Origin: Octopus vulgaris
Taxonomy: Eukaryota
Assembly: GCA_951406725.2 (NCBI GenBank)
Contig: OX597835.1
Coordinates: forward strand, 310,001 to 374,000
Direction of reading: 5' to 3'
Length of the DNA: 64,000 nt
Every line of letters begins with the position of its first letter. Within the stretch, counting starts at the first letter, position 1. The position numbers were made by a program, and so were the translations under genes. The notes beneath the pieces were generated by a model, which did not search any database, was not told the origin of the DNA, and saw only the letters and a list, made by a program, of their open reading frames with translations. Below are positions 28,878 to 61,012 of the stretch, piece after piece.

Positions 28878-28914
<37 letters not shown>

Positions 28915-32945: not shown

Positions 32946-34406
32946 AACCACTGCTGAGTGCCACATCAGTTTCTGTCTACCAAATCCACTCACAAAGCTT
33001 TGGCCAACCCAAGATTACAATAGAAGACACTTGGCCTATGTGCCACACAGTGGGACTGAACCTGGAATCATAAGGATGGGAAGAAAGCTTCTTACCACAC
33101 AGCCACGCCTGTATTCATATGTTAAATTATATTCCAAACGCCAGCTCAACGATGAGTTATTTTACTAAATTTGGCTATTACCTTTTGCCTATACTGACAC
33201 ACAAAATGATGGTAAGCTTGTCACCTAATTATATGATCTAAATCCAGCCCTTTCCATTGTTACAGTCTCTTTCTTTATTACATCATTTGATCACTTCTTA
33301 ATCAAGATGAAACTCTGATTCTCATTAACAAATATGTTTAACATCTGATGTAGCTAAGCAGCTGATAAATATTGTCCTCCTAGGTGTGTGTCTCACTGAA
33401 TTCGAGCTCCTCCTCTCATTGTCTCCTGTTTACCCACAAACAATACTTGAAAGACAACCCATTTGTCCACTGCATTGTCTGCAACATCCTCTGCATCCAG
33501 TTTTAGTTCCATGCCATGCAGAATCCTCCTCAACAAAGATGACTGTAAAAAAAGCATTCATGCAGATAAAAATATGACAACAACTCTAATATTTCTTCTT
33601 GCAAAAGGCCTGGTTGGAGGCGTAACCTTCCAAGTTCTTTTACAGGGCTTAGAAAAACTGAAGGACCCCCTGCATTAAGTGTGTGAATCTGAGAAGGGAA
33701 TATGTTGAATAAAATTATAATTAACTGATCTGAAATCCTAAAGCTTCTCAGCACCCCTCATAGTCTCAATAAATACATATACCAAGGAAACATTCTTTCC
33801 TTCCTAAACATTAACACACAGCTAAAACAAATCATTGCTGCTACAAATACTTAGTCATCAATCTCTGATGGTCTTTCACATGCATCCCACATGGTTTGTG
33901 TTGGTATTGCAGTCTGGCAAGATACACCACATCTACAATACCTGTATATCTCATGTCCTGCATCCTCAATATACACATTAAATTCATTTTGATCAAAACT
34001 ATACATCACCTACATTCATCTGGAAGGACCTAGCAAACCTATTATTTATTCCGCTTCTTTAAAAGTAGCTTAAATACTAGCTTAAAAGCCACATTCCATG
34101 TGGACTTTTAAGCTAGCTCCTGTAGAAGGCTAACTGGACCTGTGGCCCAAAACTAATGAGAGCAATAATAATAAAGAACTTATTGGTACCCTACCAATAT
34201 GGTATTACTTTAAACTCAGTTTAAATGAAAAATTTATCAGTTCACAAAGTTTGGGAATTCTTTAAAAATTTTAATGCTGGATGTTCAAGAACAAAATGAA
34301 GAGCAGATTTTCAACCCCGGGGTCATCCTGATTCCAAAAATATGTCTATGCAGAGCAAATGTAGACTGAGATAAAGGGGGCCCGGACGGACAGGTAGAAT
34401 TTTGCA

Positions 34407-36201: not shown

Positions 36202-36407
36202 TTATTGTTCGGAACTCATTGAGAGCAGTGAATTAATGACCGCATTTTTGTTGCCTCGTTGCGCAATGAAAACTGACTGAATGACATTGGTTTCAATTCC
36301 TGGGAACATATCCTTCATTTGTTGAACATCAGATTCTGTGTATGCTGGAGCTTGTTGTACAGGGGCTGGAGGCAGCTGGGTAGTTTGATACACTGGAGTG
36401 CCACCAA
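36202..36407 (-). CDS. TOLLIP: Tollip last coding exon (CUE ubiquitin-binding domain), ends at TAA
   Basis: (V)GGTPVYQ...YTESDVQQMKDMFPGIETNVIQSVFIAQRGNKNAVINSLLSMSSEQ*, with the CUE MFP and LL motifs; acceptor ctctgttgcag|. Confidence 0.95.
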
Positions 36408-39400
36408 CTGCAACAGAGACAGGAAAAATTAGTAAAACAACCAATTACCTACAAATTAATTAAAAAATAAAAAAAAACCCCAAAAAAACGCTATCAGACA
36501 CTCACTGTGTACCAAGAAATAAGGAAGAGGGTATGTGTGTGTGTGTGCACACTCAAGAATGGACAGGCCTGATTATCAAAATCCAACTTCTAATCAGTAC
36601 AGATGCAGATAGATATCCAGACATCATGGCTCGTGTGTACTGATGTCACCTTATATGGTTTTCTTACATTTAATCACATAACATGTACAATAATATCTAT
36701 AATTTTACAGGATGCACTGAAACAGCTGTAAAGATTCATTTCTTGTAAATATTATGTAACAACTTAAGGCAGTGAGCAAGCAGAATCCTTAGCACACCAG
36801 GTAAAATGCTTAGCAGCATTTTGTCCAAATACTAGTAACAATTGACTTAACCTTACCCCCAAATTGCTGGCCTGGTACCAAAATTTGAAACCAATTTTCT
36901 AACAACTTATGTAAATATATTTGTATACCAATAATTGTCCAAATGTATAGATAACTAGATAGATCAGAATCTTCCCTAACTGCTTTGTTTTCTGCTGAAT
37001 ATCCCTTTCACTTCCACTTTCCCCCAATACATCTGCTCAATCTACCAATAGCAGCTCCCACTATTTCCACCTCTATATACCACTGACCTCCTCCCAGGCA
37101 CAGTGCATCTCTTGCACACTGTCTACACTCCACATCACCTGTACAGCCTCCTATTGCCTCCACCTGCATTTAACTGCATTTACCTCTACCTCCATCTCTA
37201 TCCATCTCTTGAGAACTTCCCTGCCCCTTCACCCTGTCCAATCCTCTGGACCACTAATGTTCACCTTCCTGTAACTTGAGAGTATGCCCTGATACCTCGT
37301 CACCATCTCTCCTTTTCAAGCTGGGGTAGTCACAACGCAAGACATCTATTTGTGTCCCTCTAACATATGTTAACATCTCATCACCGGGCATAAAACCACC
37401 TTCCTCGGCTGCTAACCTCACAAGTGATAGAGTCATGTAAAAAGGCACCCACTAAGTGGTTGATGATAGGAAGAGTATCCAGCAATAGAAACCATGCTAC
37501 AGTAGACAATGGTGCTTGACGTCGCCCTCTGACTTGTCAGATCCTGCAAAATTGTCTGACCCATGCCAGCATGAAAAACAGGTGTTGAACGAGAGAGAGA
37601 TGACTGTAAATACTAACTTTTCTGATGGAAAATGTACGATCCAATATAAGCTGCAGGTTTGTGCCTTCCGAGTAAGAGGAAGACAGAAAGAGAGTAGAGA
37701 AAGAAGGTGAAGAACATGAAACATTCATATCCTTCTGCTAAATATTTGTTCCGGGCTATTCTTGATGGTGTATACAATAAGGAAGGAAAGAACAGAAACC
37801 AATAACACTGATCAATAGGATACAGCGACTGAAATCTATACACAGGATCTGTGGCTGGAGTAAGGTGCAGGCCAGAAGGTATTACAGTAGTGAAAGAGTA
37901 CCTTTAGGGAGAACACTAAAAGTTAAAAGATAGGCATGGAAGAACTGGAAAGGAACATCAAAGAACACCGGGAAGCTAGCTGGCTATCAGAAAGCAGAAA
38001 TTTTGTTAGTGTTCTGCAATAAGTGGATCAGAAGTTCTGGATTACAAAGCAAGAGTCTTGCAGGTGAATCAAAACGTCAATGGGGAAAAGTGTGCTCAGA
38101 ATGACAGTGGTGTACTTACCTTCATTGGCAATAAGAAGAGACAAGACAGAGAAATATGTGCGAGACGAAGAGGAGTTACTCCAAATATACACAAAAGAGT
38201 AACCACTTATTCAAGTGGACAGTTATATATGGATATAGTTGAAATGGCCATTAAGCATCTAAAGTTGGGGAAAGTGACAGATGAATCAAGCATAGTTGCT
38301 ATGATGTAAGGGGTTAGGCTAGCCACCCACATAATCAGTCAGGTAATACCCAGGCTGGTGGGGCAGTATAATTGTAGAATGCTGTAAGGGTGTTAACAAA
38401 TTTATTTCTACAGTAACAACAACAATTCATTCTATTATATTAAAAAATACAAGCTCATTCAATGAAAACTCCACCCTTTTCCCTCAGTCAAAACTATCAA
38501 AGACATCTAATTTTATCATAAACAAATGCCCAAAACCTAGAAGTTAGATAAGAAGGTTGTCAAAGACAACACACATAAAGTCAGACTGCCCCCCCCCCCC
38601 CCCATTCTGTCTCTGTCATTTTCTTTGTTGTCTACTTCAGTACAAGATTTAATGTCTAAATATTATGACATGTTCTCCGGCTGCAAAACCCAAGTATTGC
38701 TACCTGAAACACAGAGGAGAGAAAGATAAACAAATACAGGAGCCTGACCAGCCATTATCAGTTGGTGTCAAGACCTCAGGTGTTCTTGGGCCCCCCCCCA
38801 CCCGCATTGCTGATTTCCTGTGGCCTGTGAGGTGGGGTGGCTGCTGCAGTGCCTGGCCATCATGGCTGCAATGAGGCACAGCTAAACACCCCAATTTGTT
38901 CTGAGCTGTAAAACCCATTACTCCCTCTCCCCACCATCTTCAGTTGCTTAATTCCCCACTTCTTTTTCTTTGTTTCCTTGGTGACGTACTTATTCTTTTA
39001 TACTTTTACACGTTTCAGGTGATGAAAGGTTATGGTGAGATAGAAACAAATGTCTTGCTAGAGCGGAGGTACGTGATTGCCTAATTGTTATAATAGAAGA
39101 CACCTCCCAAGATGCCATGTAGTGGGACTGAACTCGGAACTATGTGGTTGGGGAGCAAATTTCTTACCATACAGCCACACTTGCACGTATGTGTTTATTT
39201 TTGAGTTACAATTACTACAAATTCTAATACAAAGCTCTCCAAAATCTCAAAAGTTTCTCTGCTATAATATACTGAGTAATATGTGGCTGTTTAACAGCAT
39301 GTAATTAATTTTCTAATGAAATAACAGATCATTATTTAATGAGCGCCAAGAGGGCAAAACTGATGCCCAAAACAGGACTAACTTCTTAAGCTCCAATATC

Positions 39401-41357
39401 TAAAGTGCAACTTATGTCCTTAATTTTAGCACTTGAATGAATACATCAGCCTATCAAGGGGTATATCATTATCTCCTAACTAAAACTGATAGTACATTTG
39501 AAATCAGTACCCGGAATATAGTTAACTTTCACATTTTTTCATTTTTTTTTTTCTGGCAGTGTTATCTCCCTACAGATTCAAAATAGTGTTGTGATGGTGA
39601 GAATTTAGATGTTTAATCAACTGAAACACCTACCCTCATAAGTAAGAACTGGCACGATACAGTGCATGACAAGGCTGTACCGTTTTAATTACAGATACAA
39701 TTCTCCCAACCAGTTTCTGCATAGTTTCTATCAAACTAGTCTTACTAACAATGGATGGGTCAATCCAAGGCTGAAGAAAATGACAATTTGCCTAAGATAT
39801 CATGCCTCCCAAACCATTTGCTTCTAATATGGTTAGATTTACTTATCCATCTGGCTGGTTTATGTTATGATCCAAGGTGGAGCACACAACATGTTCACTC
39901 AAACTGCTAAAAAATAACAGCTAAATCTCTCTCAAATAACATCTCCTGTCTTACAAACAAGGAAGAACATAGTTGTATAATGTGGACCTATACCTGACGG
40001 AAAAACAAGATGTTGAACAAGAGAAGGTATTTGATAGTAGGTCTGCTCGATCAGAGAGGTTGACCTAGGCTTTAAACAACAAAAACAAGTCAATCTTTTC
40101 TTGAGAGAGGTGGTGCCATGACTACGACCTTGTATGAATGTTTTCCTGCCTGGAACATGAAATAAAAACAGAAGCAAACTGAGGGTTAGTCCAGAGACAT
40201 ATTCGTTGCCACACACTCACAGAACTGAAGTGAGTGACACACATGGTCAGTGAAGCAGACATGGCACTGTGTTTAAGATTAGAATGAGCTTATTTTATGC
40301 AGTGTTCAAGTCCACTACAACTATTCCTGCTCTAGTGGGAACACTGTATGAAAAGGTTAACAGAAATAAGGGCAGTGATATGGTAACAAAATATATGGTA
40401 CAGAGATATGATAACAAATGGGTTTTATGGTCATGTGCTACACATATTGGTTTGTTAGTCTTTCAACCCTGCTCATGGTTAGGAAACTACTAACCAATCA
40501 CATATTTTGAAATTAATATGGGTGAAGACTTATGACAATGTTAGAAATAAGGGCACTTTTATGCAGTTGCTTAACCTATCCTGCTAGAAATATCTGCCAA
40601 ATCTCTCTCAAAATCAACATACCATCTTCAAAAAGGGAATACTATAGGATGGTCAGAGTTGGAATACTTCCTGTCATAAATAGGCCTGCTCAAGCGAGGG
40701 CAACTGTGGGCTAAATAATAAAGAGAACATTAAACTGAGAAATTTGGTTTCTCTAATGCCAAAGAGAATCTCTTCTGGCATCTAGAATTGGTGATAAGTA
40801 GAAAAAGAGGGACTCTATAAATCTTTGCTCGTATCATTAGTATCAGTGCAAAGGTGTAAACGAAGTTAATGAAATTTGAATAAGTCACACACAAGACACA
40901 GAACAAGAAATTTTGATCCTCACAGAACTTATTTACAATATGAAGGATATTTAGTTTGTGGAACAGACAGAAAGTAAAACAGAGTGAGAGAGAAGGTACC
41001 TTGAAAAATAGAGGAGAGGAGAGTAAGAATGAATATGGACAATGGGGAAAGGTGGCAATGGAGAGAGTGAGAAAGAAAGACAAGAAAATGGAAGAGTGCA
41101 AAGGGGAAAAGCAGGAGTTAGTGATGGAAAGAGGTGAAGGGGTGGATGAGAGGAAAGGAGAAAGAAGCAGAAGCAAGATGGAGATAAAAGGAAGAACTAA
41201 ACTTGAAAAACTACTGCTAGAGTACTAGGGCTTAAATTGTAGAAGAATTGTGTAGGTTAGTGTTTCAAGAGACAAAATGGTAAAATAGAAGAACAGTTCA
41301 AGAGCAACAATTGCAGGAAAACTAATGAATAGACTCTGCTATTCCTTCTGTACTTAC

Positions 41358-41463
41358 CTACAGGCTGCATGGGAGCGTAAAACATTCCAGGGCTGACAAC
41401 TTGTGGGATTACCATAGTTTGTTGGGGACAAATAAAGCTTCCCATTGTAAGGTTTTGGACAGG
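41358..41463 (-). CDS. TOLLIP: Tollip coding exon E (Pro/Gln-rich linker), 106 nt, phase 0/1
   Basis: PVQNLTMGSFICPQQTMVIPQVVSPGMFYAPMQPV plus G; acceptor ttccattcacag|, donor |gtaagt; phases fit the flanking exons. Confidence 0.88.
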
Positions 41464-42470: not shown

Positions 42471-43923
42471 TGATGATATTTCGTTTTTGGATTTGGTTTG
42501 CAAGATTCTTTATGTGAGTTCCTGTGTTGAAGCACATTCTGTTGTCTGGGGAGAGTCATTCTCTTTTAGTGCCTTATAATTTAACACACTCACTGGTAAA
42601 ATTTCCACTCATTTCCTTTATTTTTCTAAAATTTTCATTGCACCTTGCAACCTTGTCAATAGTTTTGAGAGTCATTATAAGAACCCTACAGTTTTGTTTT
42701 TGGATAAATATTAACCAGCCCTATTTATGATATCATAAGTGCTCTTTCTAGACATATTGGTAATTTCTTGTCTTATCTTAGTGCAAACTTCATTTCACTA
42801 CTTTTCAAACATCCTGGTCCCCGCTTTATATAGAAATAACCTGTAAATATTTCCCTAGACCACTGCGAGATCACTCTTTTGTCTATTGACTTCAAAGCTC
42901 TATGCAGGACGATGGTATGACTAATATATTAAGTCTCCTGGCCTCTTCTCGAGGCCATGTTCTTACCTATTCCCTCCGTTTATTTTATTTTATGCATTTG
43001 TATTCACTCTGATGAAGTTCCATGTACTAGATCGAATGTCCTTTAAAGATGAATACTATTAGCACCGACTGGCACTGGAAGCAGATATGGCCATAAGAAA
43101 TGTTTATGTTATGTTTTGTATTAAAAAATAATCTACAGATGTAGTCCAATTTGTGTTTCTTGATCAAAAGTTTTCTCCATTTTCTGATTATTTAAATTAT
43201 TTACACACACACAAGCAGGTCTTATATTCCTGTCTCATGACTTTCATCTCTTCATCTCCTGTGTTCCTGCTTCAAGGCTTTCGCTCTACACATGCCAGCG
43301 CAACTTGATTCATCTTTATTAGTTGAAAGACATCTGTTGTTATTTTCTCCTTGTTTGTAATTGTACAACATTTTTTCTGTTTTTTTTTTTGGTTTTTTTG
43401 CCTTTGTTGTCGTACACATTCACTTGCTTTCTCCCTAAATATTTAATGTTCTTAGCTTAGATTTTGGGGGCCAGCCAAATTTGAACAGTCTCAAGTGTAA
43501 CTGGCCGAAACTGTAAGGATAAGCTGGAAACTTGACTGAAGAGAGAAAGCTGCGAATGACCCGGCCTTATTTTTCCTGTCTGTCTTTGTATCGTCTATCT
43601 GTCCAGATGTTTTATTGTCGTCTGTCACAGATATTTTGAAGTAACTTTTTTTCTACTGAACCAAATCTCAAACTATTTATGCCAAAGTGTAGCTGAGGAG
43701 GTGTCCTCTTTAAAACTGCTAACAGTTTGCAATTTAGTTGAGAACTGAATTAGTGGTGAAGCTTGGAAGCTGCTGCGATTGACGAAATGGTGGACTTAAG
43801 AATACATTCAACCACTACCGTGGTTGAACGATTATATAACATGGAGTGAAATTAAATGAGAGAGACAAAAAATATATAAACAGTTGCCGAACATGGCAGA
43901 GGTGAAGATTTTTTTCTTTTCTT

Positions 43924-44293
43924 TTTTACAGGAACACACTATATTGAGGGCAGAGATTCTGAATCTGCAAAAAAATCTGCATTTCAAAATTTAAATCACC
44001 CACCTAAATTTCTTAAATTTTCACTGTTTATTAAAGATTTTTTTTTTTTTTGGCGAAATACATAGAAAAATATGGAGATTACGATTCTGAAAAAAAAAAA
44101 TTCTGTAAAATTTCAATTTTTCAAAAACAAATAAAAAAACAACTCCCATTCCCTCCGCCCTATGGCGAAGTGAAATTAATTTCACTTCTTGTCAAAGGGC
44201 GTGCCGTTCAAACCGAAAAGATCCAAATTTTGAAATGCAGATTTTTTTGCGGATTCGGAATCTCCGCCCTCGATACAGTGTGTTCCTTTAAAA
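43924..44293. repeat. Inverted repeat (arms about 69 bp), MITE-like
   Basis: ggaacacactatattgagggcagagattctgaatctgc... versus ...gcggattcggaatctccgccctcgatacagtgtgttcc. Confidence 0.88.
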
Positions 44294-44979
44294 ATACCCC
44301 CTCCCCCAATCCCAAGGTGGGTGCGGTCCATGATCTTTACCTCCGCCCCGAGCTTTTCGATTTACGAACAGACAACAAAATAATACAAACTAGACGGACG
44401 TTCGTTAATAAAGAGCAATGACTAAAAGTCATCGCTAAAATGAAACTCGCAATTTTATGTTAATATAGTAGTTCAGTTCGGGGAAAATCTGAAAGGTGAA
44501 TTAGCCCCATGCATTTATTTTTTCCCCCCTAGTTGTTTCACGAGTCGAACAAATTGCTTAAATGCATTCCTTCTGGGTTTTTACATTCTGAGTTCAAAGA
44601 CTGCCGAGGTCAACTTTGCCTTTCATTCTTTGGATGTTCACCCACACAACCTTCGCTCACGACATGGATAAAGAGGGTGGGCTGTAAAAGAGGGTGGATG
44701 ACGTCTCAAACCGACACTCTTCCTAATGCTGTGTGCCTCTACTATAAAAGTAGGAGTTAAAGTGGGTCGATCAACGAGGATTATCAGCGCGCTCACGCAC
44801 ACCATTTGACTCATAAATCAACTTTCCTGTCGAAGTACCAATAAAAAATAAACAATCGCAAACTATTTCCGTTTATGGATTAAAAAAAGAAATCAAACTC
44901 GTTTTGCAAAAAAAAAAAAAAATCCCATTTAAATTTCCTTTTCTTACGTCAGATACTTTCCACTTTAATTTTATTATCA

Positions 44980-45345
44980 TACAAGCAGTAATCGCCCGGA
45001 GTTGCTCGGGTTTGTTTCGACCTTTTAGAATTGGAATTTTTGAAAAGTAAAAATTTTACATTATGTAGTTTGTTATTCTCTTTGAGTGAACATTTTTCTG
45101 GTTGAAATACACCGAAAAATGGCGTAAAAATAGGGATTTTAATAGAAAAAAGCACCTTTTTGATGTAAATAATTTTTGGTGTTAACATGGTCCGATTTGA
45201 ATTTTTTCTTCTACGGGAGGAAGAGCAAGCCTTCTTCTATCATATTCTCAATTTTGGTCAACTTACGCCGCAGGGTCTCAGTGTTAATTGAAGGCTACCG
45301 ACACCTGCCGCACACAGACAACTTCAGCTTTATAGAGAGAGAGAA
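44980..45345 (+). mobile_element. Non-autonomous Helitron-like element
   Basis: Terminal hairpin cccggagttgctcggg near one end and acagacaacttc..tttatagaga at the other, typical of small rolling-circle elements. Confidence 0.55.
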
Positions 45346-45999
45346 GAGATTTCACTTTGATTCATCCTACACTTCCTTGATATCCGCCATTATATGTTCA
45401 TATATCAAAAGATTAGGCCGTCTTTCGTTTTGATTTGCAGAAGTCATTTGGATCAACTGGTTGTTAGCCGATGATTATTTACTATCATTTGTTTTGTTTT
45501 TCTTCTTCGGTTTATGAGGAAGGGCTGTGGAAACGAAACCAAGACGACCTTTCAACAAGTTTCCAAAACGAGTAGGACGAAGTGGTAACGTTCACGAGTG
45601 AATTCCGCTGAAGGAACCCAAGGACCTTCCACAACAGTTTCCGTCTACCAAATTTCACACACGAAGTGATGGTCGACTCAAACACTGCCCAAAACTGGAA
45701 TCGAACTCCAAACAACGTAGTTGCGCAAGTGAACGCGTTACTGCCTGCCACCTAGACTGTAAATGCGTGCGTGAGGGCGAAGGGATAAAGACGATGGGAA
45801 CCAAGAAGGCAAAGAGCCGGAACAAATACCACCAACTTATGGGATAAGTTCAAAGCCATAAAAAAAAAAAAATGCCCATTAAACAGGCAAGAAACTCCGC
45901 AGTTAACAATATTATTTGACGATTAAAGAAATCTACCACCAACACCCTCTTCTACTTTATCGCCATGTTGACAAAATAATAACAAACGAAAAACGATAC

Positions 46000-46110
46000 C
46001 TGGTTTGGGACATATTGGTAGACCCCTGATGGGGTAATCAATCGGCCGTTACTGGTTTGGACCGAATATACTGAAACAGTGTTAGGATAGTGTTGCACGT
46101 AGGTTCTCAT
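46000..46110 (-). CDS. TOLLIP: Candidate alternative first coding exon of Tollip (37 aa, MRTYVQHYPNTVSVYSVQTSNGRLITPSGVYQYVPNQ)
   Basis: ATG in taatcATG context; ORF ends at cag|gtatcg in phase 0, compatible with exon E; upstream acceptor ccttttctgtag| at 46218; lies in a CpG-rich patch. Confidence 0.55.
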
Positions 46111-49100
46111 GATTAAAACCACTCGGAGCTGATCAGTTGGGACAACAACGACGATGGCGCGAGACAGAAACCAAGTCAGACGAAGATAAAACAACAAAAA
46201 TGACAAACGCAACCAACCTACAGAAAAGGAGTGTTACTAAGTAGGAGGAGGAGGAGAGATATATATAAATAGAAAGAGAGAGAGAGAAATGAAAGGAAGG
46301 AGGGAGAGGAGAGACTATATCAGAATGATTGACAAAAATAAACAGGATTTAGTCAGGTGGACATTTAGTCAGGTGGTGAGAGTAGAGAAGTGATAGGACA
46401 CGTCCACACGCACCTATGCCAGAGACGACATCAAGCCGATTAGGTGACAGAGCTGTAGACGAGAGCAAGAGACACTATTGTGTAACTTGACAACTGTTTG
46501 TCACCTTAAACCGACGGACTGCCCCTCCTGCCTCATCTCCACGAATCACTCAAGTGTATCCCCTACTCCCCAAATTTATTAAATATTTATTTGCTGTTCA
46601 GGTACGTTTAGTCCTTTCGTAACAGACGTGAAACTTCTCAAAGCAGACAAACAGGAAGTGAAGTGATAGTATGTGTGTGTGTGTGTGTGTATCGTCGGTA
46701 AATCCTAAATCCGAAAAAGAAGTTACAGAGCAGTATAGTATCTCTCTCTACACACACACACACACATATATATATATACAAACACACACACACTAGTGAG
46801 TGGACAAATGAAACATTTAATAGGCGTTACATGTATGATTTAAAAGAATTGGATTCAGTTTCGTGCACATCCACAAACACACGATTAAGTTGTGTCAAAA
46901 GGTGAGATTTTCAATGTGAAATGATATTAAGAGATACGAACTAAGACAAAAAGAAACTGATGAAATACAATCAAGAAGCACAAACTCATGTGACCACCAC
47001 CTGCCAATCCTTTTTATCTCAAATGTTATTATTCATTCTTTTTCTCTCTGCTACTTTATTTTAAATTATCATCAGTTGACGCCCGCTTTCTATGCTGCTA
47101 TGGATTGGACAGTTAAACAGGAGCCAAGCCAGGCTCCTCAGTCTGTTTTGGTAGGATTTCTACAGTTGGATGCTCTTTAACACCAACCACTTAACAGTGT
47201 ACCAGGTGCTTTTTATGTGGCATCATCACTAGCACTTTTCACAGGGTCACCAAGCACCTTGTAATATACAAACCCCTAAACTCAGAGAGGGAGTAGAAAG
47301 TATTAAGTGGGTGTGGCTTTGTGCCAGTTGAGAGATTAAAGATATAGAGGGACAGTTAGAGGTGTCTGGTTGAAGAGTAAATACAAGCACCCCCCTGTTG
47401 GAAAACAAAGGAGAGTGCATGATGATGGCAAAGATGTATCAGGAGATGCCACTGAGGCACACTGGGGCTCGTGAGAATAGGTGAGGTGATGTGGAGGCTT
47501 GGATTGGGTGAGTGGGTTAGAATGAGGTGACTGCAGCAAATGATGCTGAGAAATACAGAAGTTTGGGTGAGGGTCGCAGTAGATATATGAGGATGACAAA
47601 TACTAAAGATGGAGAAGAACACAGGGAGGGGAGAGAGGGTACAAAAAGGGGGTGATTGGTGGAGACAGCAGGTAGGGGAAGACAGTAGGAAATAGAAGTG
47701 GTTTGAGGTGGGAGGAAGGTAACTGAAAAAGCCAAGGGAGAGGGATAGTATGTGCCGATTCTGCTCTCAGGTGAAAAAGGAAATGATGGGTAAAGGGGAT
47801 GAAATGTGGGAGGAGAAGATTGATGAGGCTGAGAGGAAGTGGGGAAGAGCAACTGGTGAACAAGCATTACCAGGGCAGTTTTAGGATATCAATTCTGCTG
47901 TGGTGGATGGGTCTTCTTGAGTACAGCAAAGCGCCAGATATCCCAGTCTTTTGTCATCTCCTTTGTAAGGTTCAGTACCTTGAGATTGGCCTTCAATACT
48001 TTGTCCCATGTCTTCCTGGGTCTCCCTCTTCAACATGGTCCATCCACTTCAAGTTTCTGATACTTCTTTATGCAACTGTCTATCACATGACCAAACTAGT
48101 TCACTCTTTTCCCTTGTACACTGCATATAATTCCTCACATAACTTTTCACTCTATACACTAACACTCCATTGCACATGCATACTGACACTGCACATCCAG
48201 CAGACCAGACTAGCTTTGTTCCTCTCTAGTCTTTGCATGTCTTCTGCATTCAGGGCCTGCATTTCACTATCATGTAGCATTGCTGTTTGTACACATGCAT
48301 CATACAATCTTCCTTTCAGTCAAAGGGAGACCTTTGGTTGCCAACAGCTCTCTCAACTTTCGCTATCCTATTCTTATTCTAGCAATTATTCTTTCAGTAC
48401 ATCCTCCTCCACTGCTAATTAGGTTATCTGTATATTTCTAAGCTATTTTAAATGAGCTATTTACATTTCTACAAGATAATCAATCTGCTCACATAGCAAG
48501 ACAAGTAAAACTACTTGTAGATATATATATATATATATTCCACTTATCCAATATACTTACATTAATAGACAAATTCCCTTGGAGGTAAAGAGAGCACAGT
48601 TTAAAAAATAAAATAAAAACTTAAATAATAGGTAATAAAAATGATTTAAAAATTTTCTGAGGGATTGGCAGGTACTCTGTTGTGTAAGCAGCAACACTGA
48701 TAGGTGGCAAGTGATAGGTTTAAGGTTTGGATCATGTCAATGAGCCCATCTCATCTTACTCTCCCAAATTCATTAAGATGTTTAATACTATAAAATGATA
48801 TGTTTACACAGTGTCTATCTGTTAGTTTAGTCTTCAATAAAAAAAATTATTTCATTTGTTTTTCCAGGGTTTTTCCATGCTAGCTTGAGTAGGATAAATA
48901 CACGTCTTATGCAGTGACTGATTTTTAGTTTGGTGCTCAGCTTTAGTTTATCATGGTTCATTCAGAAATCCAGTCACATTCAAATAACTGAGTATCACTC
49001 CCCTCATGAAAAGCAGTTCTTATGACGGCTTAGTTCAGATGAAGAACACAAACACAAGGTGCATTGGAATCAAAAGCCATCTTGTCACTGCAGCAGTTTA

Positions 49101-49274
49101 GAAAACTATGTTTCTTTCACTTCCCTAATTAGTTTGTATCTGTATTCTGTCATCAACACGGACGGAGAACAGAAATGCTGAAATTTCAACATCTTCAGAA
49201 ACCATCATCAGAGAAAATACCTATCAAACATTCAAACATGTTTGAAGGAAGATTCTTGGATGAGAGAAAGAAAT

Positions 49275-49330
<56 letters not shown>

Positions 49331-49439
49331 GAAAAATTTAAAATAATAAGAGTGAAAAATTGAATATTAATTTGATTAATATCAATTTAAAACCAGTGGT
49401 CTAACATATTGAAAAATCTGAAGTTTCAGAAAAAATTAT

Positions 49440-49758
49440 ATTACTTACATATAAGAGGGATGACCTGTAAGTGGACATCCATTATGCTAGAAGATCCGCT
49501 ATGGTCTTATCACTAAGAAAGGAATGTTCTCAAGAAAAGGACATTACACAGAATAATCTTCTTCTAGCATAATGGATGTCCACTTACAGGTCATCCCTCT
49601 TCATCATCATCATCGTTTAACTTCCGCTTTCCATGCTAGCATGGGTTGGACGATTTTGACTGAGGGCTGGCAAACCAGATGGCTGCACCAGGCTCCAATC
49701 TTGATCTGGCAGAGTTTCTATAGCTGGATGCCCTTCCCTCTTATATGTATGTAATATA
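49440..49758. repeat. Inverted repeat (arms about 55 bp) with a 133-bp RTE-tail insertion and 8-bp TSD tccctctt in one arm
   Basis: aagagggatgacctgtaagtggacatccattatgctagaaga versus its exact reverse complement ending at 49601; TSD copies at 49594-49601 and 49735-49742. Confidence 0.9.
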
Positions 49759-49781
49759 AATAAATGAATGTATATACTCAC

Positions 49782-49934
49782 TGTGAAAGATAAAACAAGA
49801 TTAATCATGCCTTCCTTTTCTTCGCCTTGCCTTCCACTAAGAGGGTACCAGTCATCAACGACATCACCATTCAAGACAGACTGGGGTATTGTGACGTGAC
49901 ACCATGCTATCCTATCATCAACAGTAAAAGATCT
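49782..49934 (-). CDS. TOLLIP: Tollip coding exon D (end of C2, with the two AIM/LIR-like motifs WCHV and WYPL), 153 nt
   Basis: [51 protein letters not shown]; acceptor tttcag|, donor |gtgagt. Confidence 0.96.
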
Positions 49935-50439
49935 CTGAAATAGATACAAAAAATAAAAAATAAATAAATGCAAAGTCTTCATTGTTGAGATTCAAATCCT
50001 ACAAACATGTTAATTATTGTTCTCAGTAAAACAGATTATCATTTTGACATTGAGTCTAAGCCATTTCACGCCAACCCACCCAAGACCACCTCTAGTTCGA
50101 TATGTAACTGCTTGTTTAAAAATATTCATATTTAAATTATAATTGTCTCATGAATTTATTGAAATTATGTTCTCCAAATCAAAATTGATAATTTTTTTTG
50201 ACAAAGGTACAAGGCTAGACAGAAGCCATGTGTGAAGGCACGTGGTTCAGTGGTTAGAGCATTGAGCTAACTACACTGAGGTCATGAGTTTGATCCCTGG
50301 ACTGGGCTGTGTGTTGTGTTCTCAAGCAAAGCACTTCATTTTCACATTGCTCCTGTTCACTCAGCTGTATTTTGATTCTGCTGCAACTGTCATGTGCCCA
50401 TAGTTTGCACTGACCACACTATGGAATTTCTATCTGCAT

Positions 50440-50830
50440 CTTGTCAACATATGGAACAGGGCTGTTCACTTGAAGGGATTAGGGTTCTGTCTGTTCTTCT
50501 GCTACTTAGAATTTTAGTCTTTACCAAGTTAACTTTAAGACCCTTGGAATTTTAATTTTAATTCTTCTACACTTTCAGTTATAATAACAAGGTCATCAGC
50601 ATAGGGGAGTTCTTATTGATAACTGATCTTAAATTCCTCTGTTATGGCCTGGAGGACTATGATGAATAAGAGGGGACTCATAACCGAACCCTTATGGATT
50701 CCTACCTGCACACTAAATTCACTGTTGTACTTGTTAACTCTCTCTTTGGTAAAGGTACCCTTGTACCTGCCTTGAATGGCTCTTACTAGCCAGTCATCTA
50801 TTCCTAGCTTTCACATCAACCACCAGATGA
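50440..50830 (-). mobile_element. Degenerate RTE RT fragment in Tollip intron (further fragments at about 47900-48430 and 37700-38390)
   Basis: [21 protein letters not shown] and PYADDL, homologous to 24040-24310. Confidence 0.75.
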
Positions 50831-51071
50831 GGGATCAAAGTTTCCAAATGTTGTGTGTGGAGAACTGGAAACAAATAGCCACTGTCTACAAAAGGCTCAT
50901 TCAGACAAAAGGTCACACAACATGGTAAGGCATATCAAGAAGCCCAGATTTATAGGTAAATGTGTGTGAAAAAATGTCAAACTTCCAAAAAGCAACCTGA
51001 ACAGATGTGCACAACTAATTACGCTAACACACTTATTTAGTATAGGAGAAAACAGGCCAACTAAAACTCAC

Positions 51072-51120
51072 CTCATCGAAGATTTCAAGATACATACTGT
51101 CCACGCCAACTGGAAGGTAA
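51072..51120 (-). CDS. TOLLIP: Tollip coding exon C (C2 domain), 49 nt, phase 2/0
   Basis: (C)YLPVGVDSMYLEIFDE; acceptor ctctgttccag|, donor |gtgagt; completes the phase-2 codon from exon B. Confidence 0.93.
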
Positions 51121-52047
51121 CTGGAACAGAGTAGAAGAAAAATAATCTCAGATGTTTGATTGGTTTCTAATTAATTATCATTAGATCAAGACCACACTTT
51201 AAATTAATAAATAAAAATATTAATGAAAAAGCTACTGTGTAGATATTTTGGTTTCCACAACAATAATCTCATTATCTTTGTAATGGATACAGTAATACTT
51301 TAATACTTTAAGCCCCAAATCTTACAGAAGTAATGCAGATAAAAATAGAAACAAAAAAAAAAGAGAGAGAGATGGCTGACCACTGTGAAAACAGTAAATG
51401 AATGATTATAAAATCCTATTTTAGAAGGCAAACTTTGAAAGTGCCCAGTCGCATCCAGAATGGTTATGGCTTCACTCTAAGTATCAAGAATATTGTTGGC
51501 TAATACCACTTTAGCTCAGCAACTCCTGGCATACAGGTGGTTGGCCAGACAACTAGGTCTGGCCCACAGAACTATTGTTCCAGATACACCAAACTTCTGA
51601 CAAGCTGAGGACAATATTGCACACATTCCAATATCCTGAGTAAGTGTAGACATGTTGTCCTCTCTCTACTGTCCAGTCTATTTCTGGAATACTTATAGAT
51701 TCTGGTGGTGACCACAGCAGATGTGGGCATGATTGAATGTTAAAGTATGACAAATACATATTCTTCTAATGTTGGAAACAAAAACGTATTTTAAAGGACT
51801 GTGAAATTCCGAACAGTCACAGCTGAAAGAAAGCCATCAATTTGGCAAAGTAATGAGGCCTGTAAAGGAAAAAACATTGAGGGCATTTCTCTTCACTCAT
51901 TTTCCTGTCTTCTGGTCTACCGATTATTGTAGCTATGAACTTAGAAGTGTCCTGGCCAAGTATTAGACTGATCTGCACATAGGGCTTTGATTCAAATCTA
52001 TTGCAAACATTTTGTGTTCTTGTGCTAATCATCACTGGGCAAATGAT

Positions 52048-52242
52048 TTAACCGTTTAGTATTCAGATTACTTTGTCAAGTTTAATGCTTATTTATTCAC
52101 ATCGTTTTGAATTAATCAAGCATCATCTTCTAGCTTCAAAAATTTCAATGATGCGATCATATTTTTGTAGAATGACATTGTCGGTTAGATGTGAGAGGCC
52201 AGATCTGAGCTGGGTAGGGCCAGTTTAAATGCTAAAGGGTTA
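52048..52242. mobile_element. piggyBac-type MITE
   Basis: ttaaccgtttagtattc...aatgctaaagggttaa. Confidence 0.7.
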
Positions 52243-52893
52243 AGAGGATCTGATGAAACAAGGAACCTGTATCAAGCCCCAATGTCTATTCTGGCATGGT
52301 CTTTAAGGCTGGATGTTCTTCCTAACACCAATCACTCAACAGAGTGTTGTAGGTGCTTTTTTCTTGGCCCTGGCACCAGTGAGATTACTAAGTGACTTGC
52401 AAGATAAGACACCCACTGCAATAGAGTTGGGGTGCAGTGTTGAGGGAGCTGGCTTTGTGCTAGGTGTTGAAGTATAATAGAGGGACAGGAACTGGTGCTC
52501 TGTTGTAGAGGAGATACAGGATTGCTCCAGCTGGGAAGGTAGGACACATTATTTAAATTATCACAGTCTAACTAGTTGTTAGAAATAGGTACCAGACAGT
52601 TATCTGTGATAGACTAGTGGTGTTTTACCACAGAAGCATTTATTTCTCATCCACTAAACCCCATAAGACTAGAAACAAACCAGTGGCCTTTGAAAAGCTG
52701 CCACACCTTAGGAGTTTATGTTTTGTATTATAGATTATGGCTGTATGGTTAAGAAGTTCACTTTGGAACCATACAGCTTAAATTTTATTTCCACTGCTTG
52801 AACACCATCTCTGTGAAAGTGGTTGGCATTAGAAAGGGAGAGAGGGGAAGAGAGAGAAGGATGAGGAAGACTTTAAAACAAGGTCATATTTAC

Positions 52894-53027
52894 CACTGAA
52901 CACATTTATTCCAGGAAGGAAGTTTTGCTCCATTATACGAAGTTGGAGTCTCAAACACCGCATGTCCTACTCGGATGCGACAATAAGGGTCCATCTTCAT
53001 AATGCCATAGTTTTTGGTTAATTGAGC
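52894..53027 (-). CDS. TOLLIP: Tollip coding exon B (C2 domain), 134 nt, phase 0/2
   Basis: [44 protein letters not shown] plus TG; acceptor tgatcag|, donor |gtaaat; read directly from the sequence, absent from the ORF track. Confidence 0.95.
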
Positions 53028-55215
53028 CTGATCAGAAATTAAAAAACGTGCAAATTATAACTGGTATATTTAGAAACAGGAAAGTGGTGCAAGAAACAAA
53101 CAACATGAAAGATAAGTTATCAAGAGGACAAAGTTTCAAGCCAAGGCCGCCAAATTGCTACACTTTGCTTACAGTGACGCACGGGAGAGGCATGAATATC
53201 ACAACATGTTTCCTACCATGCTCAAGTTGATAATGGAAACAATTCATTAAGAGATAACGCCAGTTACAACATATGACGAAGGTAACCAATGCAAACCTGC
53301 TCATTGAAGGAGCATAGTCAGTTGTATATAGCGAGAGGAAGGAATTGCTGTTTAGTGGCTGAAAATGCCAAAGAGGGCAACCAAATGCCATAGAGGGCAA
53401 CCAAATCTTCATATCTCATGCTTTAGTATCTTTAAAAAAAAGAAAGACAAAATGTAGTCCGTGATATAAACAAGACGGTCATAGCCGTAACCCCTTTTAT
53501 CGTGTATCTACTTGATTGGTGTTGATCTGCAGCTAAGCAGCCAGAATTAAAGGAGTTTCCACAAGGTCGATCAATCTGCTAGAAATAGCAACCAAAGCTC
53601 AATCACGTCACTCTGTACTTCCATCAAAAAGGAAGGATACATTAGAAAATGTGATCCTTGATATACGAAGTGATGAATGGTCATGGTTTGAAGGCTCTCA
53701 TTATAAGTGTCTTCAGTTTGGGCTGGCCTGGGGCTAAACAACAACCATAACTATTTCCAGCCAATGAAGAATCACCTACTTCAGTGATTTTCAACCCTTC
53801 CTCTGTTTTTTTAACTCCTTGACTTGATGTATTTTGCTGTTTAACTTCTTACTTCCTCACAAAAATAAGCACTAAATAATCACTATATATAAAAGCTCCT
53901 GTCACTGCCAAAACATTACCTTTAAGGTAGCATGTTAGCACTAGTAGTAGTAGTAGTAGTAGTAGTAGTTGTAATAATAATAATGATGCTTATAATTTTC
54001 GCACAAGTCTAGCCTTGTTGAAGGGAGGAGGCAAGTACTTGAGTGGTACTTATTGTAATGATGAAACGTAAAGCTGATCTCAGCATAATTTGAACTCAGA
54101 AAGTAAAGAGTTGAAAATTGTAGTAGTTCTTTCTAATTTTGGCTCAAGGCCAGCAATTCTGGTGGAAGGGAGCAAATCAATTGCATCATCTCCTGTAGTG
54201 AGTTGACTGATACTTTATTTTATCAACTCTGAAAGGATTAAAAACAAGGTTGATTTTGGCAGGATTTGAACTCAGAATGTCAAGAACCAGAAGAAATAGC
54301 ACAAAGCATTTTGACCAACACACTAATGATTCTGCCAGCTTTCTGCCCAATAATAATTATAAGGGTTTCAAATTTTGGTACAAGGCCAGCAATTTCGGGG
54401 GAGGGGTAAGCCAATTACAATGACCCCAGTACACAACTGGTACTTATTTTATTGACCTCCGAAAGAATGAAAAGCAAAGTCAACCTTGGTGGAATTTGAA
54501 CTCAGAACGAATAAATAGACAAAATGCTGCTAAACATTTTGCCCTGTGTGCTAATGATTCTGCCAGCTCACCGCCCCCGCACAGTAATATTAATAACAAT
54601 TGTTTCTCATTTATGCACAAAACTCCAACTTCCATTGCAACATCAAGAAAGAGGAAATTCACATTAGTATGGCAGAATAAAAATAGACAATTAAGCATTG
54701 AAGGAAGCAAAGAACTGAAGAGAATCCAGACAAACACCAAACACAATATAATAAAGGGATTATTTTAGAAACACACAACTTTGTTGTAAAACTGAAGTGA
54801 GAACATTTTAACGGTTACTAAAATCAGAGTTTTTGGTCAAGTAGAACAAAGAAAATGTTGGACATAAGTGAAAACAAAATAAACTGGAATCATTGTTTCA
54901 GAAAAAGAATGGAATGATGAAAGAATATTTTGAAGAGGAAAAAGAAAGGTGATACAGTGTGGGAAGGAGAGGGTGAATAAGAGGAGGGTTGAGAGGTGGA
55001 TGAGGGGAGACAGAGGGGTGGATGAAGGGAGGGGGAGAGAGAGAGGTGGGAAAGAGAGTGGAGGAAGAAAGAGGGAGAGAGAGAGAGGAAGGAAAGAGAG
55101 GAGGGAAAGAGAGAGAGGACAGAGAGAAAGAGAGTGGAGGAAGAAAGAGAGAGAGAGAGAGCAGGAGAGAGTGGAATGGTTTTAAAGTATATAAAGCTGT
55201 TTATTGAATACTTAC

Positions 55216-55386
55216 TGTAACTATTTTAATACTAAGACGACCAGCAACACTGCCAGCCACAAAAGACATTCCGGCTTGGTGTTGTGCCTGAAGAATTTGG
55301 GCCACTCGCTCATCTGCTGCGATTTGTTGCTCGGTAGGGTTGGAGGAGACCCGCAAGAAATCATCTGGCAGCTCACCTACCATAAC
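55216..55386 (-). CDS. TOLLIP: Tollip coding exon A (Tom1-binding region and start of C2), 171 nt, phase 0/0
   Basis: Translates to VMVGELPDDFLRVSSNPTEQQIAADERVAQILQAQHQAGMSFVAGSVAGRLSIKIVT, matching the Tollip GELPxDFLR...GRLxI pattern; acceptor aag|, donor |gtaagt. Confidence 0.93.
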
Positions 55387-55391
55387 CTTCA

Positions 55392-55429
<38 letters not shown>

Positions 55430-56388
55430 TAACAATAATAACAATCCTTTCTACTAAAGGCACAAAGCCTGAAATTTGTGGGGGGGGGACGACTAGTCAA
55501 TTATATCAACCCCAAAAGGATGAAAAGCAAAGTCGACATCGGCAGAATTTGAACTCAGAATGTAGCAGCAGACAAAATTCCGCTCAGCATTTTGCCCGGC
55601 ATTCTAACAATTCTGCTAGTTTGCTGCCTTAAACAACAACAACAACAACAGCTTTATTGGCCTGAAGGGCCCAAGACATCAAGGAACGGTACATGTATAA
55701 ATAGAAAAACAAGGAGTTGGTGGATTTAAATCAAGTAAAACAAAGGAATCAGCAATAAGAATAAGGAACAATAACAGAAGATAACAAATCCGCCTGGTGT
55801 TGAATCAAAAGAAATAAATAATAAAAACAAACGATCCTGAAAAGTGGAGGTGAGCCTCATTGGGTAACTCAGGGGATCCTACATAAAACCCCCAGATTAC
55901 ACACCAAAGTACTATCTGCTAGAAATAGCAGCCAAATTTACCTTAAATCACACACACTACCATCTTCAAAAAGAGTGCATTAGATAACTTAGTTGGAGAT
56001 GCACTCTGAAACAGATGGTCATATCTGGAATATCTTTGATGAGTTTATTCAATCAGGATTAATGTAGGCACAGAAATATCACCATAGCAAGCAAATCAGA
56101 TTGGAATTGTGATATAACGAGAGTACAACTTCTGCACCTTAATACTACCTTTTAAAGGTAAGGGTCAATAAAGTTTCCATCTGCATACTCCTTAAGAACA
56201 GTACCAAAACTGAGGCACAGCAGTATTAGATTTTAGGGGAAAAATTAGTCCAAAGATGAGGTCAGTTGAAATGAGGCTTAAATACAGTTAGTGTTTAGTA
56301 TCCTTAATGGTCAGTAGTGGAGGTGGAGACCAAAATAGAGAAGGTGCAAATCTAAAGAGGAGGGATTTTAGTAAAAGAATAAATAAGT

Positions 56389-56800
56389 GCAGGCATGGCT
56401 GTGTGGTAAGAAGCTTGCTTCCCAACGACATATGGTTCCAGTTTCAGTCCCAGTACATGGTACCTTGAGCAAATGTCTTCTACTATAGCCTTGAGCCAAC
56501 AAAAGCCTCATAAGTGGATTTGGTAGATGAAACTGAACAAAGCCTGTGATGTATGTATGTGTGTATGTATGTGTGTACACCTTTGTCTGTGTTTGTACCT
56601 CCACTATCGCCTGACTATGAATGTTGGTGTGTTTATGTCCGCGTAACTTAGCAGTTCGGCAAAAGAGACTAATAGAATAAGTAGTAGGCTTACAAAAAAT
56701 AAGCCCTGGGGTCGATTTCTTCAACTGAAAAATCCCCTTAAGGCAGTGCTCCAGCATGGCTGTAGTCAAATGACTGAAACAAGCAAAAGAATAAATAAAA
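56389..56800 (+). mobile_element. Full-length SINE family 1 copy in Tollip intron
   Basis: Same head, body and 3' hairpin tail as 4852-5280. Confidence 0.85.
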
Positions 56801-57186
56801 AGGTGCAGGCATGGCTGTGTGGCAACAAGTTTTACTTCTCAACCCCATGGTTCCAAGCTCAGTGCCACTGCATGGCACCTTGGGCAAGTGACTTCTACTG
56901 TAACCAAAGCCTAGTGAGTGGATTTGGCAGACAGAAACTGAAAGAAGCCTAATAACCGAAACAGATACAAGGTTAAAGATTAAAAAAAAAACATCTATTC
57001 AATTCTTCTGGATCTCTCTGTTAGATTTACTTATTAAAAGGCAGTTTAGATTTCCAATGGGGGAAAGTAAAATCTGCTGCATGCATGTTTCTTTATATGA
57101 ATAGCAACAAGGATTGCTACTTGGTTGCTGTCGATAGTAATATAGAATAATAATAATAATATACAAGAGAAAGGAATGATAAATAA

Positions 57187-57223
<37 letters not shown>

Positions 57224-58607
57224 GAGCAATGAGAGAGAGGGAGGAGTGCATGCATTAGCAGTCAGGTACAATAGAGTTAGTGACCTAATAATGTTGGTTG
57301 AATATGAATGCGGTGGTGTACATGTTAGAGATGAGTGCAGTGGTGTACGTACAGCTGAGGCAGATGATTAATATCAACATGGGAACAATACGAGGCACAT
57401 GTTTACGTCAATGTCTTTCATTAAACAACAATATAACAATGTTGTTTGTCATAATAAGGATTCCTATTCTCATGGCATTTGAGTGGGTGCAGATGGCAGA
57501 GAGAAACAGGTGAGCTGATGTGAAGCTCAGATGAACAAGCAGACCTACAATCAAAGGCATTCCAACCATAGCCATCCAGCCTTCATTTCAGGTAGTCGTA
57601 TATATAGGATTATATTACCAATATGTCCTTCCATTTCTTTTAAAGAGGAATGGTAAAATTTAAAGGAGATTCAGCTGTTATCTCTTGTAGATCAAGACAG
57701 CCATGTAGCTATTTCTTTGGTTCATCAGATTAAATGTTGTCTAGGATGATGATATAGGAAGTTGTGACATTCACACTTTTCCCAAAAGCAGTTAACACAA
57801 TGTCAGCTGTTTGTCTTTGTGAAGACAATAATAACAATAACTTTCAGAATTAGAATGACTGTGTGGTAAGAAGCTAGTTTCCTAACCATCTGGTTCTGGG
57901 TTCAGTCCTACAGTGTAGAACCTTGGACAAGTGTCTTCTACTACAACCCCAGGTCAACAAAAGCCTAGTGAGTGGATTTGGAAGACAAAGACTGAAAGAA
58001 ACCTGGTGTGTATGTGTGTATTTTGTCCCCCCCCCCACTACTTGACAGCTGGTGTTGGTGTGCTTACATCCCTGTAACTTAGCAGTTCAGTAATAAAGAC
58101 TGATAGAATAAGTATCAGGCTTAAGAAATGCAAAGTAAGTACTGAGGTCAATTCATTCAGCTAAAACTTCTTCAAAGCGGGTGCCCTAGCATGGCCACAG
58201 TCTAATGACTGAAACAAGTAAAGGATAAAGGATTGGTAAGTTCCACAAATGTGAGGAGGAAGAGGATAGAGTCAATTCTAAACCCCATTCCTACAGTACT
58301 TTTTTGGACTGGTGCTTTATTTTATCAATAAGACTAAATTGATCTGAGCAGAACTGACTTTGCCATTGTTTTCATTTCAGGGTTTGTCACCAATGCAGGA
58401 TTCAGACGTCATCTAAAAGGGCTACGGCTGAAAGCATCATAAACTGCAGAGGCCTCAAATTAATTAAAAGGCATCATCATAATCATCATCAACAAGATTC
58501 TTTCTCAGAAACTTACATAAGAATATTCTGTAGTAGCTGTTCAGTCAGTAGGGCATGTGGACTGCTCAAGGCAACATTTAAGGGTGGTGAAGAGACAAGC
58601 ATATGTG

Positions 58608-58835
58608 TAATCCCTTAGCATTCAAACCAGCCATAGCTGGCCTAAACAGTCAAAACCAGTTTAATATAAAACTGGCCAGATCTTATCTTTCACACCTATC
58701 CTACAATGTCTTTCTAAAATTAAGCAATCACATCATGAAAATGTCGTAGCTACAAGGTAATGCATGATTAATTCAAAACAATGCAGATAAATAAGCATTG
58801 CATTTGAGAGAGTAATCTGAATGCTAAAGGGTTAA
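58608..58835. mobile_element. piggyBac-type MITE
   Basis: taatcccttagcattc...gaatgctaaagggttaa; opposite orientation to the 52048 copy. Confidence 0.7.
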
Positions 58836-58954
58836 AACATGTTACATATAAGGAAGAGAGTGGCCAAAACCCCTGCCACTGTATTCAGTCACCACAAATT
58901 CACACAATGCTGGGTTGTATCAAATCAAATTACAATGTTGTATATACTTGTCAA

Positions 58955-59250
58955 GTGGAGGCGCAATGGCCCAGTGGTTAGGGCAGCGGACTTGTGGTCG
59001 GAGGAACGTGGTTTCGATTCCCAGACCGGGCGTTGTATGTGTTTATTGAGCGAAAACACCTAAAAAGCTCCATGGCAGGGGGTGATGGCAACCCCTGTTG
59101 TACTCTTTTGTCCCAACTTTCTCTCACTCTCTCTTCCTGTTTCTTGAGTAACGCTGCGATGGACTGGTGTCCCGTCCAGCTGGGGGGAACACATACGCCA
59201 CAGAAACCAGGAAACCGGGGCCCATGAGCCTGGCTAGACTTGAAAAGGGT
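58955..59250 (+). mobile_element. tRNA-derived SINE, family 3
   Basis: tggcccagtggttagggcagcggact...gtttcgattcc tRNA-like head followed by a non-tRNA body. Confidence 0.7.
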
Positions 59251-60039
59251 GATGTTTATAGTTATTTTCATATACTTGTCAAAACATTTGACAGTGAAAA
59301 TATGAACAAAGAAAAATAAAAAAATAATAAGCAAAAATATAAATGAGAGAGAGAGAGCGAGAGAGAGAAATCTGATAACTTCAGTAGAAATATTTACTAA
59401 CTTTATCTAAGACATGACATACCATTTTTTCTCATTAGATAACAAAAGTGACATCCCCAAATGTCAAACATCCTATGACTGCTGTTGTTTATTATTCATG
59501 TCGAGATAATGTTACAATGTATGGCCTCAAGCTCTTTACATTCTAAGTCCAAATCCAACTGAGGTTAGCTCTGCCATTCATCCTTCCCAACTTCATAAAA
59601 TAACTTTACCAGTCAAGTACCGAGGCAGATGGTAACAACTAACCCCCCCACCTCTCCTCAAAATTATTGCTCTTGTACAGAAATCATAAACCACTGATCA
59701 TGTCTTTATTTTAATTGATGTTATTGTTTAGCTCCAGGTCTGGGCTGATTACGAAGCCCTATGATCAAAGATACTCCATACAAGACCATCCTGTCTCATT
59801 TTTTTTTTAGTCATTATATCTAGTACTAAACTCTGCAAAGCATCTGTCTCCCTCTGCTTTGTTTAGTCAATAACTAGAGCATGATAAAAGAAATTTGGTT
59901 GCTATTTCTGGCAAATCATGCAATCACATTGAGGCTCACATGTTGTCTCGTGATAACCTATATAAGGAAATGACGAAATCTATAACAACAGATATGAAAG
60001 GTCAATGTTATTTGTTGAATTATTATTAGAATTATTATT

Positions 60040-60495
60040 CGGGCAATGAGCTGGCAGAACCATTAGCATCCAAGGCAAAATGCTTAGAAGCATTTTGTTC
60101 ATTTTTACGTTTTGAATTCAAATCCCACCAAAGGTCAGCTTTGCCTTTCATCCTTTCGGGGTCGATGAAATAAGTACCAGTTACACACTGGGGTTGATGT
60201 AAAAGACTAGACCCATCCTCAAAATTTCAGGCCTTGTGCCTATTGTAGAAAGGATTATTTTAATAACAATTATTAAGCTGGTGGCAGAATTGTTAGCATG
60301 CCAGGCAAAACACTTAGCGGCATTTTGTCCATTTTTACATTCTAAGTTCAAATTCCGCCAAAGTTAACCTTGCCTTTCATTCCTTTGGAGTTGATAAAAT
60401 AAGTAGCAGTGGGGCACTAGGGTCGATGTGATCAACTTCACTTCTCCCCCGAATTTACTGGCCTTGTGCCAAAAATTTGAAACCATTTTATAATA
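60040..60495 (+). mobile_element. Two tandem copies of SINE family 2 (gagctggcagaa...gagttcaaattcc...agaaaggattatt); others at about 6360-6567, 8530-8705, 29815-30000, 53990-54580, 55395-55630
   Basis: Recurrent sequence with Pol III A/B-box-like motifs and an (ATT)n tail. Confidence 0.8.
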
Positions 60496-61012
60496 ATTCT
60501 GCTTCTTCCTCCTTTCTGCTTGATCAGTTGAAGGGGAAAACAAAGAGCGAAAGAAAAAGGAGAGAAGAAAAGAGGGTAAAGCAAAGAGTGAGAGAGAAAG
60601 AGGGAGACTGCTGTGCATAATGTATATAAAATGTATATATAAAGTGCATTAAGTAATCATTGTATTCCAATTTCCTTCGCTTTCCAATGCTTAGCAGATG
60701 AGCGACTATCTTCCAATACAGACACAACACAGGCGCTAAGCTCTCAGGTTTTTAGCATAAAGTTTTCAGAAATAACCCAATTAGTTTACTATTAATGCCA
60801 TGAAATATTTATGGGTCCCACTAGCTATTCTAATTATTATTATCATGATGACAGATTGGTAGAACTGAGAGAGCAGCAGACAAAAAAGTTGTGCTGTATT
60901 TCGTTCCAATTCTTTGTTTTGATTTCAACTTCACCTTTCCTCTTTTCAAGGCTCAATAAGACGTGGAGGTCAGAGCATTAGATCATATTACCCCTCTGAA
61001 TGCAAGGCTTTG

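Follow-up and report, generated by a model that had tools for sequence, protein, structure and literature searches.

In the window analysed here, the whole stretch of 64,000 nucleotides of Octopus vulgaris DNA, Tollip is encoded on the minus strand; six of its coding exons are present and are matched by proteins named from Octopus species. Pfam finds both a C2 domain (PF00168) and a CUE domain (PF02845) in the protein read from the window's exons, which makes the gene a Tollip, and a Tollip search of the animal's own genome returned five matches, all at the present locus. The host gene, a single-copy Tollip, shares C2 and CUE with the Tollip/CUET family (Octopus Tollip XP_029649349.1). Its coding exons are as follows:

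Coding exon 1, L002:4968-4945, outside the window
Exon 2, 55216 to 55386, minus strand: N-terminal region, corresponding to the Tom1-binding domain
Exon 3, 52894 to 53027, minus strand: C2, ending in phase 2
Exon 4, 51072 to 51120, minus strand: C2
Exon D, 49782 to 49934, minus strand: end of C2, with two LIR-like cores, each led by a Trp (residues 137 and 155)
Exon E, 41358 to 41463, minus strand: Pro/Gln linker, with an internal Met from which a 97-aa product would start
Last coding exon, 36202 to 36407, minus strand: CUE domain

The internal Met of exon E is kept in all four cephalopod sequences aligned, and the two cores of exon D probably correspond to the human Atg8-binding motifs. The acceptor of exon 2 (55386-55445, minus strand) is preceded by an (ATT)n run and scores -5.8, far under the other acceptors; two annotated O. 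vulgaris proteins (P0002 and P0006) omit this exon and, with it, the Tom1-binding region. P0002 also exits the CUE exon early, its last 49 residues matching 33396-33542 (minus strand) at 100%, which reflects either an alternative C-terminus or an annotation error. There is a 100-N assembly gap at 17271-17370 of the window.

Our subject is a segment, X, of the intron between exons D and E, which an earlier note on this DNA had put forward as a hidden exon, either the start of a short CUE-only isoform or a poison cassette:

Segment X, 46000 to 46217, minus strand: candidate exon, 218 nt
ATG frame of X, 46000 to 46110, minus strand: 37 codons, phase 0 at the donor

The layout given in that note was borne out by the sequence. 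X is bounded by an AG on its 5′ side and by the donor CAG/GTATCG on its 3′ side, its first ATG is at 46110, and the 37 codons from there end in phase 0, matching the start of exon E (41463, phase 0). The computed length of X, exon E and the last exon together is the 140 aa foreseen and, as was also claimed, a reading that enters X from exon D (end at 49782, phase 0) stops early, after 13 residues, at a TGA. The ATG frame is closed upstream by an in-frame TAA at 46236-46234 and is stop-free from there to the donor; its ATG has an A at -3, and the three short ATG frames upstream (46536, 46431 and 46364) all terminate ahead of it. X is single-copy in a search of the octopus genome. The “Tyr-rich” N-terminus proves to be so only mildly, with 5 Tyr against 6 Val in 37 residues. 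No Pfam family was found in this peptide, and a single-sequence fold of it, made without a control and not used as evidence, gave a beta-hairpin (pLDDT 73, pTM 0.34). X is a candidate exon, predicted to be spliced to exon E.

How far do these features exceed what an intron of this size would offer by chance? Splice sites were scored with a crude matrix. On it the X donor reaches 1.5 bits, a score equalled or exceeded by 19 of the 486 GT sites of the D-E intron; the six real donors score 0.9-7.9. The acceptor, which had been described as strong, is less remarkable than that on its matrix score of 3.1, which 22 of 484 AG sites in the intron equal or exceed; the AG 19 nt upstream scores 9.9. Its pyrimidine tract, however, does stand out (83% pyrimidine in the 100 nt before it vs 54-68% at the six real acceptors). 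In dinucleotide shuffles of X, an ATG frame of at least 37 codons in phase with the donor arose in 341 of 5000 (6.8%). Equally good intronic donors number 89 in 31,859 bases, three of which have an ATG frame of at least 37 codons, and X alone has both such a frame and an open frame of at least 72, a comparison that is not a p-value, its thresholds having been set from X itself. The sequence features of X are therefore only modestly above chance. None of the upstream Tollip exons ends in phase 1, as reading X in its ATG frame would require, which fits X as a first coding exon; X as an in-frame cassette is rejected on the same ground.

Depletion of CpG along a gene body is what is expected of a methylated gene, and most of the Tollip gene body is depleted in this way. 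X, in contrast, lies near the upstream edge of a region in which CpG has been kept:

CpG-retaining island in the CpG-depleted Tollip gene body, 43750 to 47000, no strand: likely an unmethylated regulatory region
High-copy dispersed repeat of ~380 nt, 44957 to 45351, no strand: inside the island, masked before CpG was counted

The repeat-masked CpG observed/expected ratio (o/e) is 0.91 at 45352-46900 vs 0.24 at 47001-64000 and 0.20 at 36202-41400. Only three of the 28 1-kb bins of the gene body reach at least 0.65, all of them in the island, and the next highest is 0.46, making the island around X the sole CpG-retaining island of the Tollip gene body. As a positive control, the true first coding exon sits in a similar island with a masked o/e of 0.82, to which the retention at X is comparable, this measure being only a proxy for lack of germline methylation. 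The 144 kb examined comprise 144 bins, of which 123 are usable; 16 of these are at or above 0.65, three at the X island, six at the main start and seven elsewhere, so Tollip starts are not the only places with such islands. The masking, built from the 144 kb of local sequence and one genome search, is incomplete. Elsewhere in the genome 45360-46900 has only simple-repeat or short (40-55 nt) matches; this part is otherwise single-copy, and the island is therefore not merely a young repeat. Candidate copies of the ~380-nt repeat inside it run into the thousands, with tandem ones among them on contig C29; most of the matches listed are 85-89% identical (40 of 3876 candidates scored). The available portion of one study reports that Octopus methylates gene bodies and that a large class of its genes is without methylation at the start site (PMC9476566). 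The island around X is likely an unmethylated second promoter, for which we infer methylation state, promoter activity and direction alike. The island itself leaves the direction of transcription unfixed, poly(A) and donor-like words being about equal on its two strands. Two other CpG-retaining patches were seen, one upstream of Tollip (L004:8001-10000, masked o/e 0.81 and 1.31), possibly a neighbouring promoter, and one downstream of the last Tollip exon (28001-31000 of the window, bins of 0.69 and 0.83).

Ahead of X on the minus strand, the following elements are predicted:

Candidate core promoter, 46580 to 46659, minus strand: ETS-like word at 46659-46652, E-box-like word at 46630, AATAAA at 46591 and 46580
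Non-coding leader exon, 46414 to 46550, minus strand: 3′ end at the donor TAG/GTGCGT (46414), 5′ end at 46550 guessed
196-nt intron or retained 5′ UTR, 46218 to 46413, minus strand: pyrimidine tract, three AG only, TAGTAAC at 46239

The donor at 46414 ranks third among the 486 GT sites of the D-E intron on the crude matrix, and the TAGTAAC is a branch-point-like word. A leader exon ending at 46414 would best explain the acceptor of X, rather than splicing from exon D. The core promoter is a lead only, its ETS 8-mer showing no enrichment in the window (3 found vs 1.99 expected). The two AATAAA words (minus strand), 11 nt apart and upstream of X, could be either TATA-like boxes or intronic polyadenylation signals. 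At the main start, CRE-like and ETS-like words are found at L002:5240-5225 (minus strand), ~260 nt before the first ATG and within the main CpG island, and the first coding exon likewise has a pyrimidine tract and an AG ahead of it.

We found no X protein in the databases searched. The X peptide gave no candidate among the 71-2000-aa protein representatives, no close match among 1.84 billion representatives and no usable match in the Atlas search, and its exact 37-aa and 52-aa frames are absent from the protein collection. Eight weak matches among the 1.84 billion, all of them long multi-repeat proteins with bacterial Ig-like, beta-propeller or secretion-tail domains, were rejected as summed chance matches. 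The octopus Tollip cluster has 10 members, under names from three Octopus species and Argonauta, and the X start is in none of them, a weak absence because RNA-derived entries are few (4 of 10). Similarly, 30 short CUE proteins of other animals were all without an X-like start; these, and 12 of the further cluster members, look like read-throughs of an acceptor, calls from an internal Met or truncations of full-length forms. A 97-aa protein that begins at the exon-E Met (P0013) is neutral for X. Rfam gave no matches in the D-E intron, and a metagenome scan returned five loci of 1.1-1.9 kb, too short for that intron. A search of sequencing runs with 46000-46660 found all or part of the stretch in 20 of 24 rows, none recorded as RNA. 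Fourteen of these runs (4 studies, 2 organisms) were guessed to be RNA and contain 0.44-0.99 of the 72 words vs the ~0.30 that X alone would give; there being no control stretch, they may be DNA or unspliced precursor and are a lead only, no evidence.

One protein model resembles the predicted isoform. CAE1323232.1 of the cuttlefish Sepia/Acanthosepion pharaonis, a 123-aa “CUE domain-containing protein”, begins with 21 new residues that meet exon E precisely at its boundary and are followed, as in the octopus prediction, by linker and CUE. The residue before the junction is a Met and the model is therefore not an AG-acceptor read-through, as far as can be judged from AG-ending codons. It differs from the octopus prediction in having 21 rather than 37 new residues, with no significant similarity between the two peptides (BLASTP E 5.1; 1355 of 5000 shuffles score as well), and it is a predicted gene model. 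Nor does the cuttlefish peptide have a homolog among the 244 stop-free segments of the octopus D-E intron (best score 33). The model is an independent prediction of the same layout in a second coleoid; neither homology nor expression follows from it.

What, then, is X? The explanation that we prefer, tentatively and at a little under an even chance of being right, is that an internal promoter gives rise to an RNA of leader, X, exon E and last exon that would encode a 140-aa linker and CUE isoform. The claim of the earlier note for such an isoform has gained independent though indirect backing from the CpG island, the plausible leader exon with its 196-nt intron and the cuttlefish layout. Against it stand the empty searches for an X protein, the two AATAAA words upstream of X, the weak X donor, the 6.8% of shuffles with such a frame, the unrelated cuttlefish peptide, the 30 short CUE proteins without an X-like start, the minor effect of a human CUE-containing fragment (below) and the unfixed direction of the island.

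In a rival account the island is a real, unmethylated regulatory element, such as an intronic enhancer or an antisense or non-coding promoter, with X never spliced to exon E and its frame and sites due to chance. The island is clear where its direction is not, the donor is weak, a frame like that of X is reached by chance at the 6.8% level, the protein searches were empty, and seven of the 16 high bins lie outside the two Tollip islands without a known start. However, a leader donor, a pyrimidine tract, an ATG frame and a matching phase coincide at one edge of the island, the cuttlefish model joins at the same exon-E junction, and no Rfam family was found in the intron. We regard this account as somewhat unlikely.

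Quite unlikely, in our estimate, is an internal promoter that makes the X-E-last-exon RNA only at a low level or in a poorly translated form, with no functional short protein. The three short ATG frames upstream and the lack of detected conservation between the X and cuttlefish peptides would fit such an RNA, and non-coding mouse Tollip transcripts from other first exons are described in the available portion of PMC1431733. None of the three upstream frames, however, runs as far as the X ATG with its A at -3, and the second Met, in exon E, is present in each of the four aligned cephalopod sequences.

Splicing of X after exon D as a regulated poison cassette, whose 13 residues and stop would lead to nonsense-mediated decay or a CUE-less protein, is a weak reading and to us a very unlikely one. 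As the 50-nt rule for nonsense-mediated decay demands, the early stop brought in with X would lie more than 50 nt before a later junction, indeed far upstream of two, and the pyrimidine tract at the acceptor is unusually long; a CUE-less isoform and a cryptic-acceptor transcript of mouse Tollip are also known from the available text of PMC1431733. But a stop in the D frame appeared in 4625 of 5000 shuffles of X, so the poison stop carries almost no information and the earlier note's poison claim finds no specific support in it. A cassette accounts for neither the island nor the ATG frame, and the nearer donor at 46414 can account for the acceptor. Highly improbable is the remaining account, that nothing here is functional, X being plain intron and the CpG excess coming from old insertions or local mutation bias: several repeat copies do lie in and beside the incompletely masked island, but its unique part keeps an o/e of 0.91 and has only short or simple-repeat matches in the genome.

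If an internal promoter does act at this island, transcripts would start near 46.55-46.7 kb, traverse X and be spliced to exon E and the CUE exon. Compared with the Tollip/CUET family, the predicted protein would retain the CUE, Met-Phe-Pro motif included, together with the linker; missing from it would be the Tom1-binding region, the C2 and both of the Trp-led cores of exon D; if the X ATG were bypassed, the exon-E Met would still give the 97-aa CUE protein. The roles of the lost parts, Tom1 binding and phosphoinositide binding by C2, are set out in the available portions of PMC4482507 and PMC10933033. Like the CUET aggrephagy receptor Cue5 the short form would have a CUE domain, but Cue5 carries an Atg8-binding motif, where the short form would keep only a bare YQYV core in X and the FPGI core inside the CUE. 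According to the part available of PMC8394947, the CUE of yeast Cue5 binds ubiquitin and self-associates, and for this reason buffering of full-length Tollip is possible. The short protein may bind ubiquitin, and perhaps also full-length Tollip, but would not reach membranes or Atg8, and could for that reason weakly buffer Tollip-dependent cargo sorting. In the available text of PMC4482507 a human CUE-containing C-terminal fragment had a minor effect only in a Wnt reporter, competition not being the stated test.

A bolder proposal is that coleoid cephalopods, octopus and cuttlefish alike, have an internal Tollip promoter in common in the post-C2 intron, from which a CUE-only Tollip with a lineage-variable leader peptide would be translated as a built-in competitor in ubiquitin sorting, aggregate clearance and Toll signalling. 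On present evidence we think this rather unlikely. As would be the case in octopus, mouse and human Tollip are diversified by other start sites and by splicing, with several start sites and splice forms, CUE-less and non-coding ones included, in the portions available of PMC1431733, PMC5142340 and PMC9340867; among them are a mouse form of 220 aa without CUE, a human form of 213 aa and non-coding ones (PMC1431733, PMC5142340). Unlike the octopus prediction, no form described in these portions starts downstream of C2. Nor was a Tollip form starting after C2 found in the literature searched, whose coverage does not extend to the main isoform paper (Lo et al. 2009), or a short Tollip isoform in the available parts of PMC5418219, PMC9334734 and PMC6390351.

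An internal start in octopus Tollip is, judged from sequence, credible and unproven. Internal promoters commonly serve to make short isoforms and the kind would not be new, but, if translated, this one would provide a natural test of a lone Tollip CUE in a long-lived nervous system. A second promoter, if real, would also make Tollip qPCR results depend on primer location. When Tollip was evaluated as a reference gene for qPCR in Octopus vulgaris, its stability rank was mostly mid to low (PMC10230085).
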